This document shows, in pieces, positions 13,710 to 19,789 of a DNA stretch of 64,000 nt. The stretch is taken from NCBI GenBank assembly GCA_963709345.1, contig CAVPVX010000007.1:352001-416000 (forward strand), given 5' to 3'. Every line of letters starts with the position of its first letter. Position 1 is the stretch's first letter. Source of the DNA: an uncultured Actinomycetes bacterium (GTDB lineage Bacteria; Actinomycetota; Thermoleophilia; UBA2241). The notes beneath the pieces were generated by a model. The model saw nothing but the letters and a program-made list of their open reading frames with translations. It was not told where the DNA came from and searched no databases. Made by a program: the position numbers and the translations under genes.

Positions 13710-13789
13710 GGTTGACACCTCCCTGTGGTGTGGTGGATGACGGCGGGCGGGCCCGGCGAAAGGCGTCGCCCGCCGTTGGCTCCTGTCTG

Positions 13790-15691
<1,902 letters not shown>

Positions 15692-15725
15692 GAAAGCTCC
15701 TCCCTGCAGGATTACTCTGATAGGA

Positions 15726-15758
15726 ATCATAAAAGTTGAGTCAGTACGTGTCAACTTT
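15726..15758 (-). promoter_or_regulatory. sigma-A promoter overlapped by HAIR operator (HspR site)
   Basis: TTGACA(15749-54)-17 nt-TATGAT(15726-31) on minus strand. Inverted repeat AAAGTTGAGT-N7-TGTCAACTTT resembles HAIR CTTGAGT-N7-ACTCAAG. Confidence 0.88.
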
Positions 15759-16007
15759 GTACCCGGGTCGCTCGCTGCCCAAACGCCCCTTTCGGACACC
15801 GGGCGGGGTGATCCTCGCGTCCCCGGCCGGCGAGATCGCGGTCCGGGCACTCAAGCGCGCTTGGCGCCGCCGCCGACAGGGACGCAACGCCGGCGGCGAT
15901 GCAACGCCGAGCGTGCGTTGCGCACAAGCGCGCGGCCGGTACTCTGCGGTTGAGGGAACTGGGGGTGGGGGCTGGAGGAGCGTGCGACGAGCGTCTACGT
16001 GACACGA

Positions 16008-16350: not shown

Positions 16351-16453
16351 CAACGGGCATGGCGGTTCGGTTGCCGATTCGGCTGCCGAAACCGCCAAGT
16401 CGTTGCCGAACCCTACACATCTCGCCGTTCAGCGGTTAGACTGTCGCGCACAC

Positions 16454-16612
16454 GCGCGGCGTGTGTCCGCGCTCAGGCAGTCCGCCGCGTCGTCGCCGGA
16501 CGCGACGTCCGGGAGCAGATCGCTCCCGAGTCTCAGGCGGACGAGACACGACTGTGAGATGATGCGCAGACTGACGTGACCTCGCCACGCTCTGAACGAG
16601 CACACGCCGCGC
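16454..16612 (+). ncRNA. Structured 5' leader, riboswitch candidate
   Basis: 12-bp closing stem 16454-65/16601-12, inner stems and three hairpins. TAGACT -10 at 16437-42, ~100 nt before the aminotransferase start. Confidence 0.5.
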
Positions 16613-16709
16613 CGCCCGCCCTACTTCACGGCGGCGCCGCCACCATTCCGTATCCCTGCCTCATCCTCTGGAGACCGAGGCGGGACGACTGCGAAGGAGA
16701 GTAACCCAC

Positions 16710-18089
16710 ATGGCAGAGTGCGTACCGAACCGCAAGCTCATTGCGGAACTCATGGAGAGAGAAGAGAAGCGGCTCGAGAAGGAGACGCCCAAGTCCTACG
16801 AGATCTACCAGCGCGCCATCAAATCGATGCCTATGGGCGTCGCGTCGTCGTATCAGGCCCGCGACCCTTACCCGGTCTACTTCACCCACGGCACGGGCCC
16901 GCACATCTGGACCGTCGAAGGCCGGGAGATCGCCGACTTCCACAACGGCTTCGGCTGCATGGTGCAGGGCCATGCGCATCCCGTCATCGTCGAGGCCATC
17001 CAGAAGCGCGCGCCGTTGGGCACGCAGTTCGCCCTGCCGACCGAAGACTCCGTCATCATGGCCGAGAACCTCGCCGGCGCCTTCAAGCTCCCCAAGTGGC
17101 GCTTCGTCAACTCGGGCTCCGAGGCCACGATGGACGCCATCCGCGTGGCGCGCGCGTTCACCGGCCGTGAACCGATCGTCAAGATGTTCGGCTCCTACCA
17201 CGGTCACCACGACTACGTCATGGTCAGCATCGGCGCCCTCGACTACGGCAAGATCGGCCCGCGCGACAACTATTGCTCGCTCCCCTACGGCGCCGGCATC
17301 CCGCAGAGCTCGATCGACCTCACCGTCGCGGTGCCCTTCAACGACATCGAGAACATCACCAAGCGCATCGAGCGCATGGTCGACGAAGGCAACCCGCCGG
17401 CCTGCGTCATCATGGAAGCCGCCATGATGAACCTCGGCGTCGTGCTGCCCGAGCCGGGCTTCCTCGAGGGCATCCGCAAGCTCACCAAGAAGCACGGCAT
17501 CGTCCTGATCTTCGACGACGTCAAGGTCGGCATCTGCACCGCCCGCGGCGGCTCGGTCGAGCGCTGGGGCGTCCTGCCCGACATGGTCACGCTCGGCAAG
17601 GCCCTCGCCGGCGGCACGCCGGCCGGCGCCATCGGCGGCAGCGACGAGGTCATGGCGATGGTCAACGACGGCACCGTCTTCCAGGTCGGTACCTACTCAG
17701 GCAACCCGCTCGCCATGGCGGCCGCACGCGCCAGCTTCGAGCAGGTCATGACGGATGACGCCTACAAGCACCTCAACCACCTGAACGACAAGATCATCGC
17801 CGGGTGCGACGCGGTCTGCACGAAGTACGACTTCCCCGGCTACACGGTCGGCATCTCGTCCAAGGGCTGCGTCAACTTCGCCCTCGACAAGATCACCGAC
17901 TACGAGTCGTTCATCAAGACCCAGGACCACGAGCTCGTCGCCTTGGCGTGGCTCTACAACATGAACCGCGGCATCATCATCGCCCCCGGCCGCGAGGAGG
18001 AGTGGACGCTCTCCATCACCCACACCGACGCTGACATCGATCTCTACATCAGCGCCTTCGAGGACCTCGTCCGCGACGTCACCGCCTGA
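16710..18089 (+). CDS. Class III PLP aminotransferase (GSA aminomutase-like)
   Basis: RFVNSGSEATMDAIRVAR, YHGHHD, LIFDDVK, PDMVTLGKALAGG, GTYSGNP, AAGGAG RBS. Substrate not assignable. Confidence 0.92.
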   Translation: MAECVPNRKLIAELMEREEKRLEKETPKSYEIYQRAIKSMPMGVASSYQARDPYPVYFTHGTGPHIWTVEGREIADFHNGFGCMVQGHAHPVIVEAIQKRAPLGTQFALPTEDSVIMAENLAGAFKLPKWRFVNSGSEATMDAIRVARAFTGREPIVKMFGSYHGHHDYVMVSIGALDYGKIGPRDNYCSLPYGAGIPQSSIDLTVAVPFNDIENITKRIERMVDEGNPPACVIMEAAMMNLGVVLPEPGFLEGIRKLTKKHGIVLIFDDVKVGICTARGGSVERWGVLPDMVTLGKALAGGTPAGAIGGSDEVMAMVNDGTVFQVGTYSGNPLAMAAARASFEQVMTDDAYKHLNHLNDKIIAGCDAVCTKYDFPGYTVGISSKGCVNFALDKITDYESFIKTQDHELVALAWLYNMNRGIIIAPGREEEWTLSITHTDADIDLYISAFEDLVRDVTA

Positions 18090-18225: not shown

Positions 18226-19107
18226 TCAACCGGCGGTGTCGGCGCCCCAATCGATCTCCGGCTCCGAGAGCGGTGGGCGCTGCGGCTCACCTGGCCCGTC
18301 ACCGTCGGCGATATCGTCCAGAAGCTGGCTCACCTCGGCCCAGACGCTGTCGCGGTGAGCCTGCAGTTCGGCGGCGTCGTCGGCGCGGGACTGCCGCTCC
18401 GCCTTCACCAGCAGCACGCCGGCTTCAGCCAGCTTGCCGAGGATGCTCACGACGGTGATCTCCTCCAGACGGCTCTCGCGCGTGATCTGCTTGACGGTGC
18501 GCTGCCCGTCCACCTGCAGCAGCACCATGAACTCGTCGCGGCCCATCGGCAGCGGGTTGCGGGGCAGCGTGACGTAGTCGCCGTTGCGCACCAGCACCGT
18601 CGCCGGCTGCCCGAGCATCTCGACCGCCAGGCAGTATTCGCCGCCCAGCGCCGAAATGTCGAGCAGCACCGAGTGCGTGTCGACGGTGATGAAATCGACG
18701 GAATGCGGGTCGGGGTCGACGATGAAGACGAAGGTCCCCGATGTCTCGAGCTTGGCGGCAACGAGCGTGTTCGCGATCTGCCGCGACAGCACGTCGCGGA
18801 GCGCGTCCTCGGCGACGGCCCCTCCCTCTACCAGCAAGGACCCCACCGGCCTCGGCCGCGCCTCCTGCACGGTGAGCGCGGCGGCGAGTTGCGCCTCGTT
18901 CACAAGTGCGCGCTTGAGCAACTGGCTGCCGATCACGGTGTCGGCGACCACGCGGGTCGAGTCGCGAGTCTCCGCGATCCGCCCCCCGGCGAAGTGCACG
19001 TCGACGATGCGCTCCGGGCACTCGATGTGCAGCGTACCGGAGCGGCGCGTCCGCCCAAGCATCTGCAGGATGTCGACGATGCCGAAGGTATCAAGGGTGC
19101 CCCGCAT
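18226..19107 (-). CDS. DUF4388 (PatA-N-like) domain protein
   Basis: MRGTLDTFGIVDILQML...RSGTLHI, IGSQLL/VGSLLVE MshEN-like segments, C-terminal LLQVDGQRTVKQI winged helix. Confidence 0.8.
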   Translation of the reverse strand: MRGTLDTFGIVDILQMLGRTRRSGTLHIECPERIVDVHFAGGRIAETRDSTRVVADTVIGSQLLKRALVNEAQLAAALTVQEARPRPVGSLLVEGGAVAEDALRDVLSRQIANTLVAAKLETSGTFVFIVDPDPHSVDFITVDTHSVLLDISALGGEYCLAVEMLGQPATVLVRNGDYVTLPRNPLPMGRDEFMVLLQVDGQRTVKQITRESRLEEITVVSILGKLAEAGVLLVKAERQSRADDAAELQAHRDSVWAEVSQLLDDIADGDGPGEPQRPPLSEPEIDWGADTAG

Positions 19108-19135
19108 GGTGCGCCGAAGTCTATAATCGGAGCCG

Positions 19136-19789
19136 ATGAACGTCGACCTCCACACGCACACGTACCCGGCCTCCGACTGCTCCCGCATCGCCTACCGCGA
19201 CTACATCGCGTGGTGCGTAGCGCACGAGGTCGAGGCCGTCGCCCTGACCAACCACGGCGACGTGACGGACAACCTCAAGCTCGGTCCGGCCCTGGCCGCC
19301 GAGGGCGTGCTGCTGATCGACGGTGTCGAGATCAGCACGCTGTTCGGCGACTTCATCATCTTCTCGCCGGACCTGGACCTGCTGGCGACGTTCAGAGACG
19401 TGCAGGACGTCCCTCGCGACGGCGAGCTGCCCGGCGACGCAGCCGTCGTCTGGGTCCACCCCGGAGCCGGCGGAGGGCGCAGCGGCTCAGCCTACTACCC
19501 GGGCATCGATCGGATGGTCGCGGGTATCGTCGACGCCGTGGAGGTCTACAACGCCTCCTGGCTCGCCGACCGGTACGTCGCCGCGGCGGAGAGCCTGGCG
19601 GCGCAACTCGGGGCCGCGCGCACGGGCGGCAGCGACGCCCACGACGCGGCGCAGATCATGAAGTGCTACACGGAGCTGCCGGACCCCGTGCGATCCACCG
19701 CCGACGTCGTCGTCGCCATCAGGGCAGGCCGCACCACCCCTCACCGCAGCGAAGCCCCTGCGCGCAAGCGCCGGTTCGGACTCTTCTAG
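19136..19789 (+). CDS. PHP domain phosphoesterase
   Basis: DLHTHT, LTNH, GVEIST, VEVYN, GGSDAH. TATAAT at 19122. Confidence 0.88.
   Translation: MNVDLHTHTYPASDCSRIAYRDYIAWCVAHEVEAVALTNHGDVTDNLKLGPALAAEGVLLIDGVEISTLFGDFIIFSPDLDLLATFRDVQDVPRDGELPGDAAVVWVHPGAGGGRSGSAYYPGIDRMVAGIVDAVEVYNASWLADRYVAAAESLAAQLGAARTGGSDAHDAAQIMKCYTELPDPVRSTADVVVAIRAGRTTPHRSEAPARKRRFGLF

Follow-up and report, generated by a model that had tools for sequence, protein, structure and literature searches.

The systems closest to the element described here are messenger stabilisers of the Shine-Dalgarno (SD) type, standby sites, riboswitches and short upstream open reading frames. Stabilisers of this type reportedly include the STAB-SD of Bacillus thuringiensis cryIIIA and the polypurine stabilisers of Bacillus subtilis mRNAs, which are said to have been described by Agaisse and Lereclus in 1996 and by Hue et al. 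in 1995. Elements of the STAB-SD type are described as acting near the 5' end of the mRNA, and the standby sites of the tisB type that have been described are unstructured and not SD-like. Passages of one paper (PMC2358910) report 5' stabilisers with a polypurine or SD-like sequence, both in Bacillus and for the katG gene of mycobacteria, where the polypurine stretch stands 4 nt before the start codon and is the gene's own ribosome binding site. No papers joining Thermoleophilia and riboswitch were found in the literature and, judged by title and abstract, none of the papers listed on aminotransferase riboswitch candidates of Actinobacteria concerns the element.

The window analysed here is a 64,000-nucleotide stretch of the genome of an uncultured member of the Thermoleophilia, and its positions 16437-16709 form the ~265-nt 5' leader of a HemL-like class III aminotransferase gene (16710-18089). 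An initial annotation had read this leader as a candidate riboswitch with a closed, multi-branched fold. Comparison with relatives establishes that the leader is a real, conserved, uncatalogued and lineage-restricted cis-element, which is new and unclassified. It is best classed as a leader organised around a decoy-like motif for ribosome binding that stands a long way 5' of the AUG.

The locus and its promoter region

The leader region is flanked by dnaK on the minus strand (13790-15850; NCBIfam DnaK, 1047 bits) and by the aminotransferase gene. The top NCBIfam models for the aminotransferase are those of glutamate-1-semialdehyde aminomutase, which score 341-346 bits and are under their cut-offs of 398 and 527; because the true hemL is located elsewhere in the same genome (590.6 bits), the enzyme is regarded as a HemL-like paralogue. 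It is 95% identical to a copy in another genus, g30 (G106:C14:305749-307125), and differs more from most copies of its own genus (82-89% identity), while the leader is still of the own-genus type, and this combination suggests that the coding part may have been exchanged or recombined near the start codon. The aminotransferase genes at six loci of relatives (L002, L003, L016, L035, L042 and L047) are broken by early stops or frame shifts, with 84-90% identity in the rest of the sequence, and these breaks are probably assembly errors of the metagenome-assembled genomes rather than pseudogenes.

Two neighbouring frames were also noted. A 675-aa ORF on the plus strand (window 13712-15739) matches Pfam NAD-GH (PF10712; E 5e-171) and lies antisense to dnaK; it is almost certainly a spurious antisense frame, and we take the NAD-GH family to be an antisense artefact itself. 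The next gene past the aminotransferase, on the minus strand (18226-19188), codes for a DUF4388 protein in which NCBIfam recognises a c-di-GMP-binding motif of the MshE type, with a score at the cut-off (38.4 bits).

The TAGACT and AAGGAG boxes named in the initial annotation are both present (Table 1). The first is a probable -10 box, and we infer that transcription starts downstream of it; a simple sigma-70 scan found no full consensus promoter. Upstream lies a block in which TGCCGAA is repeated three times and which also contains two small palindromes, GCCGA-T-TCGGC and GCCG-AAA-CGGC. No other sequence of the whole locus is as well conserved (~90-95% identity even between genera). The block keeps a fixed distance of 56-58 nt to the -10 box at almost every locus and occurs as a single copy in the window's own genome. 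It looks like an operator for a dedicated transcription factor, presumably a protein binding at this block, and transcriptional control would come from this near-invariant single-copy sequence acting over the TANNNT promoter. A sigma-54 promoter reading of the block was rejected, as no sigma-54 gene was found. A g22-type promoter block is also carried at the end of a 3790-nt contig labelled Candidatus Eisenbacteria (L142), which is probably mis-binned.

Table 1. Features of the aminotransferase locus, in window coordinates; pairing percentages refer to aligned leaders of the window's genus.
Feature	Position	Strand	Remarks
Operator-like block, three TGCCGAA repeats (GTTGCCGATTCGGCTGCCGAAACCGCCAAGTCGTTGCCGAACCCTACAC)	16370..16418	+	ends ~18 nt 5' of the -10 box
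Probable -10 box TAGACT (TANNNT type)	16437..16442	+	TA(G/C/A)A(C/A)T kept in place; spacer before it varies
5'-proximal hairpin CACACGC / GCGUGUG (most relatives: GCGAGC / GCUCGC)	16449..16465	+	89.7% paired, 29 leaders
Hairpin GGGAGC / GCUCCC	16511..16527	+	79.9% paired
Hairpin GUCUC / GAGAC with G-rich loop (AGGCGGAC in the window; AGGGGGAC in relatives)	16530..16547	+	83.3% paired
Hairpin CUGUG / CGCAG with the SD-like motif in its loop	16552..16569	+	89.0% paired in the genus
SD-like core motif GAGAUGAUG, a divergent copy of RRGGUGAUA	16556..16564	+	motif in 59/66 leaders
Possible mini-ORF AUG AUG CGC AGA CUG ACG UGA	16559..16579	+	genus frame GUG AUA CGC AGA CCN ARG UGA
Small hairpin GCUC / GAGC	16589..16601	+	84.2% paired; 2 pairs with double changes
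GC-rich hairpin GCGCCGCC / GGCGGCGC, no U tract after it	16609..16637	+	84.2% paired; almost invariant
Hairpin CCUGCCUC / GAGGCGGG, directly 5' of the true ribosome binding site	16655..16684	+	best covariation in the leader
True Shine-Dalgarno AAGGAG, 10 nt 5' of the AUG at 16710	16694..16699	+	(nearly) invariant in alignments
HemL-like class III aminotransferase, 459 aa	16710..18089	+	Pfam Aminotran_3, E 1.6e-55

Distribution and conservation of the leader

Matches to the leader DNA were found in 35 of 61 sampled relatives and in 54 of the 89 genomes of the family; the order comprises the same 89 genomes, in 11 genera of uncultured Thermoleophilia from soil and sediment. An orthologue of the aminotransferase is present in 73 of these 89, and the leader keeps its place before the gene at each of the 66 orthologous loci that were examined. 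A short-word search for the upstream block led to the same aminotransferase 116-346 nt downstream in 55/55 loci, with the caveats that the block of L028 is diverged and that L030 is a chance match. The orthologues of five further genera (11 loci) also have long leaders, in which the motif described below is exact (GGTGAT) nine times and variant twice. Four paralogues of 55-68% identity have no free-standing leader, and three of them directly follow an upstream open frame. Outside the order, the long leader and motif are missing in 19 of 20 orthologue loci (49-75% identity), L124 being the exception.

The leaders themselves are nearly unalignable between genera: sequence turnover is almost complete and leaves a 9-nt SD-like motif, and in some species most of the leader has been deleted. 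Among public sequencing runs, none holds more than 0.17 of the sampled words, and stretches of leader not covered by contigs are uninformative. Contigs from RNA libraries of relatives (four libraries from two studies, of a type that can contain DNA) span from 20-234 nt 5' of the AUG through into the coding sequence, and because they bridge the two, they fit a leader that is transcribed together with its gene.

Comparison with known RNA families

The leader had been described as unassigned to any known family, and this was borne out by comparison with 4227 Rfam models. Across the whole window at gathering thresholds only three tRNAs were found and nothing in the leader; the best match to the leader region at E up to 10 was CcsR1, with 21.7 bits against a gathering score of 65.3; and the loci of 19 relatives, searched at E up to 0.1, gave nothing in the leader. 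No Rfam score reached the gathering threshold for the glycine, lysine, cobalamin, TPP, SAM, T-box or c-di-NMP families, or for 6S or Ms1 RNA. A stand-alone RNA resembling 6S or Ms1, which the initial annotation had offered as its second option, also finds no support, given the lack of a terminator-like site on the plus strand before the gene and the RNA-library contigs that join the leaders of relatives to coding sequence.

Secondary structure of the leader

All of the pairings listed in the initial annotation are present in the window: the 12-bp P1 (GCGCGGCGTGTG at 16454-65 with CACACGCCGCGC at 16601-12) and its TCAG/CTGA extension, CAGTC/GACTG, CGCGTCGTC/GATGATGCG, the three junction hairpins and the hairpin before the ribosome binding site, CCTGCCTC/GAGGCGGG. 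The long P1 is also contained in the minimum free energy fold of the single sequence. The energy of folding is no better than chance, with z = -1.38 and 18 of 200 dinucleotide shuffles folding equally well, and the reverse strand folds better than the plus strand (z -1.89 vs -1.38).

The fold was compared with an alignment (A2) of 29 full-length leaders of the window's genus, in which 61.6% of its cells are paired. The part that is kept consists of three hairpins, GGGAGC/GCUCCC, GUCUC/GAGAC and the pre-SD hairpin (79.9%, 83.3% and 68.8% paired), and the rest of the closed multi-branch fold is mostly specific to the window. In P1, the outer five pairs (GCGCG/CGCGC) are invariant and paired in 22-28 of the 29 leaders, while the inner seven, paired in 1-18 of them, are peculiar to the window. 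The remaining helices are poorly kept, at 49.6% for CAGUC/GACUG, 59.1% for CGCGUCGUC/GAUGAUGCG and 46.5% for GGACG/CGUCC. The repeated CUCAGGC, likened to glycine riboswitches, does occur in the window and has no counterpart in the relatives, which carry a single CUCAGGGGGAC.

A chain of local hairpins describes the aligned leaders better than a closed junction. In this model 76.4% of cells are paired, compared to 36-48% when the partners are slid as a control, and there are 54 double-change cells against 30.4 +/- 4.0 in shuffles, a number reached by 0 of 500, although related sequences may exceed every shuffle without any structure. The frequent U-G pairs would become C-A on the other strand, which places the structure on the plus strand, and the same applies to the GUCUC/GAGAC hairpin taken singly.

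The individual hairpins differ in how they vary. The 5'-proximal hairpin has two pairs with double changes; its 3' strand in the window doubles as the 5' strand of the annotated P1, and at its position other genera have hairpins of differing sequence, with a mean z of only -0.70. In GGGAGC/GCUCCC there are compensatory changes from A-U to G-C, in six sequences at one pair and in two at another. The hairpin that holds the SD-like motif (CUGYG/CRCAG in its genus form) has one-sided changes only (U-G, C-G, U-A). The GC-rich hairpin overlaps the 3' strand of the annotated P1 and is the source of the weak CcsR1 match. In the pre-SD hairpin double changes are found at 8 of 8 pairs in the annotated register and at 6 of 6 in the register of the relatives.

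The claim of a cis-regulatory RNA is thus upheld as far as it concerns a conserved, cis-acting aminotransferase leader with several hairpins that show compensatory changes, and it is unsupported where it requires a closed multi-branched aptamer: between genera only the 9-nt SD-like motif survives, and even this is lost in 7 of 66 leaders. The case is a cautionary one for riboswitch discovery, as a convincing multi-branch fold of a single sequence in 70% GC DNA largely dissolves against its relatives.

The conserved SD-like motif

The sole element kept across all genera is RRGGUGAU, usually followed by A. It was found in 59 of 66 distinct leaders, in 49 of them as the exact GGTGATA, and is missing in the other seven. 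The two bases preceding GGUGAU are both purines in 59/59 leaders, and A follows it in 51 of the 59. In the window the stretch GAGAUGAUG is the same as that which the initial annotation had paired with CGCGUCGUC.

The 3' tail of the organism's own 16S rRNA, read from the genome, is GGAUCACCUCCUUUCU, and the motif is its complement and therefore an extended Shine-Dalgarno sequence. The duplex predicted between motif and tail has an energy of -11.4 to -16.6 kcal/mol in most leaders, as against -7.2 to -13.1 kcal/mol, mostly -7 to -10, for the true SD. The copy in the window (GAGAUGAU) has one internal mismatch, in the middle of the duplex with the tail. Pairing with 16S rRNA leaves the conserved A after GGUGAU unexplained, because the opposite 16S base is G.

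The motif lies 59-169 nt 5' of the AUG, and a start codon (ATG, GTG or TTG) 3-12 nt past the SD core occurs in only 1 of 59 leaders, the motif itself containing GUG. In 48 of the 59, from several genera, the distance to the AUG is 141-169 nt despite the unalignable sequence in between; a constraint on this length would be explained by none of the readings proposed below.

Elsewhere in this genome RRGGTGAT is a genuine type of ribosome binding site: it occurs 444 times against 232 expected from base composition, and in 71 cases a start codon follows that opens an ORF of 60 codons or more. Extra copies of the short motif pattern were chance-level matches only. Predicted accessibility of the motif is not raised, with a mean unpaired probability of 0.44, where the true SD has 0.45 and the leader as a whole 0.39. 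Outside the window's genus, a short stem around the motif can be formed in most cases; such stems scored a mean of 10.6 against 8.5 with shuffled flanks, which is not significant per sequence. A covariance model of the motif hairpin (R1) matched g1, 7/7 g22 leaders tested and L049, and no g30 leaders; it is too specific to the window's genus for wider use.

Within the genus, the motif region GYGGGGUG is complementary over 8 bp to a conserved CRUCCCGC ~50 nt downstream, with 90% of cells paired (A2 columns 123-130 with 183-190; in the window about 16554-61 with 16601-08). In the window itself neither partner retains this sequence, and the downstream one is engaged instead by the 5' end, forming the 12-bp P1 of the initial annotation.

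Possible functions of the motif

Our preferred reading, which we hold tentatively and with somewhat less than even confidence, is that the motif is a ribosome-engaging element that may act as an mRNA stabiliser or as a standby site, in the manner of STAB-SD. RRGGUGAU would engage the 16S rRNA 3' tail within the 30S subunit; the bound ribosome could then act as a 5' stabiliser against decay of the RNase J/E type or, alternatively, could stand by for the structured true start site downstream and so affect translation. The 5'-terminal hairpin and the covarying pre-SD hairpin would be the remaining usual stabilising parts. Engagement of the 30S subunit is favoured because a strong SD without an ORF, a 5' hairpin and a pre-SD hairpin are the ingredients of the Bacillus stabilisers, and because RNase J is encoded in the genome (588.9 bits). 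At the level of sequence, conservation, synteny, complementarity to the 16S tail, the lack of a nearby start codon and some hairpin covariation are evident. Against this reading, the presumed transcription start would be ~100 nt from the motif, unlike elements of the STAB-SD type, described as acting near the 5' end; the accessibility is not raised, the trailing A is unexplained, the window copy has a mismatch and the motif is absent in 7/66 leaders.

The start codon inside the motif (GUG; AUG in the window) may itself be used for initiation, and this leads to the first alternative, which we consider unlikely: the motif would open a very short upstream ORF (with GUG AUA, or in the window with AUG AUG) whose translation or initiation controls the downstream gene. 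In that case control might run, for example, through ribosomes that occupy the leader or that stall at AUA, a rare codon. The start codon is kept in all 59 leaders that have the motif, the sole change being GUG to AUG in the window, and the second codon is AUA, AUU, AUC or AUG, a wobble-like pattern; AUA accounts for ~6% of Ile codons in a crude count. Within the genus, 22 of 34 leaders keep the 6-codon frame that ends in UGA, or one close to it, and CCG, CCA and CCC alternate in it synonymously; the divergent leaders L018, L021 and L024, unrelated in sequence, still stop after 5-7 codons. By inspection, however, no SD is found 5-10 nt before the GUG in the window's genus, where the preceding bases are ACUGUGGG, while some other genera have GGAGG 3 nt before the motif GUG. 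The length of the ORF in other genera ranges from 5 to more than 50 codons and 1-nt indels shift its frame, about a third run on towards the gene, which is roughly the chance expectation at 69.5% GC, and the peptide is not conserved past two residues. A long conserved upstream ORF was rejected, as frame and length are not kept between genera.

The riboswitch of the initial annotation, in which the leader would bind a small molecule related to the aminotransferase and switch expression, is a minority reading that we regard as distinctly improbable. It would account for the length and structure of a leader that precedes the gene of a metabolic enzyme and matches no known family, for the nucleotides that are conserved in loops and linkers between the hairpins covarying in the genus, and for two possibly exclusive pairings, the 5' GCGCG:CGCGC (22-28/29) and the motif G-run with CRUCCCGC (90% paired). 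These candidate switching helices are without covariation, and the latter pairing was equalled in 472 of 500 shuffles. The best anti-SD partner is likewise no better than in shuffles (mean z +0.18 for the true SD and -0.23 for the motif), and the z of -1.38 for the fold also counts against a structured aptamer. The genera of the order share no aptamer-sized core, only 9 nt, some species have deleted most of the leader, and the element is missing in 19/20 orthologues outside the order. A switch between anti-SD and anti-anti-SD pairing found no support, as the partner windows coincide in only 8 of 49 leaders and the partners are no better than in shuffles.

About as improbable is a site for a trans-acting factor, which could be an RNA-binding protein or a C-rich sRNA on the G-rich loops, or a DNA operator half-site inside the transcribed region (reverse complement TATCACC). 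Sites for proteins and sRNAs are typically short and strictly conserved amid variable sequence, two G-rich loops stand side by side in the window's genus (AGGGGGAC and GGGUGAUA), and the promoter block shows the gene to be under dedicated control. On the other hand, no candidate factor was found, a 6C-type sRNA was not detected, inspection revealed no palindromic partner for a DNA site, and the purine rule at the two positions preceding the motif fits 16S pairing well.

We would give a similarly low probability to the more far-reaching proposal of a new kind of regulatory RNA, confined to this uncultured order of Thermoleophilia. Its sensing or actuating part would be a mimic of a ribosome binding site displayed on a hairpin, either as a riboswitch class with a pocket that includes the GGUGAUA loop or as a reader of free 30S subunits or of rare AUA decoding that sets the expression of the aminotransferase. 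Least probable of all, and in our view very unlikely, is a relic without present function that persists through descent, such as a ribosome binding site that was duplicated or displaced: the motif has been lost in 7/66 leaders, most of the leader is gone in some loci, and in the genus its region resembles that of the true ribosome binding site (ACUGUGGGGUGAU vs ACUGUGAAGGAGAG), but it is near-invariant across 11 genera amid unalignable flanks.

If the motif works in the proposed manner, Actinomycetota would have a Shine-Dalgarno element, conserved throughout an order, that has no ORF of its own and is set in a structured leader. A mechanism known chiefly from a handful of Bacillus mRNAs would then reach into a deep, uncultured lineage, and ribosome binding without initiation could be studied in a clean natural case. 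The HemL-like aminotransferase appears to be under unusually elaborate dedicated control, combining a near-invariant operator-like block with a long leader, and its substrate is worth finding on account of this control and of the metatranscriptome contigs that cover the gene (four RNA libraries, two studies).

Comparison with known systems

Like riboswitches and the orphan candidates collected in Rfam, the locus has a long, structured and conserved leader with covarying hairpins before a metabolic gene; it differs from them in having no Rfam match, no multi-helix core shared between genera and no demonstrable expression platform. Upstream ORFs and leader peptides are comparable in that the start codon is preserved here and, among leaders of the genus, a frame of six codons as well, but there is no properly spaced SD in the window's genus and frame, length and peptide are not conserved between genera. 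Standby sites of the tisB type resemble it as ribosome-binding places 5' of a structured true initiation region, whereas the site here is a strong SD mimic. In katG the polypurine sequence is the gene's own ribosome binding site, and the motif here lies away from that of its gene.

The likeness to STAB-SD and the polypurine stabilisers is that of a 16S-complementary, SD-type sequence in the 5' UTR which is not used for starting the main gene. It occurs along with a stem-loop at the 5' end, and the lineage is Gram-positive and has an RNase J gene. The element described here departs from STAB-SD in lying ~100 nt from the presumed 5' end and, in the window's genus, in a hairpin loop; in using the GGUGAU part of the tail complement rather than GGAGG; and in being kept across a whole order before a single gene.
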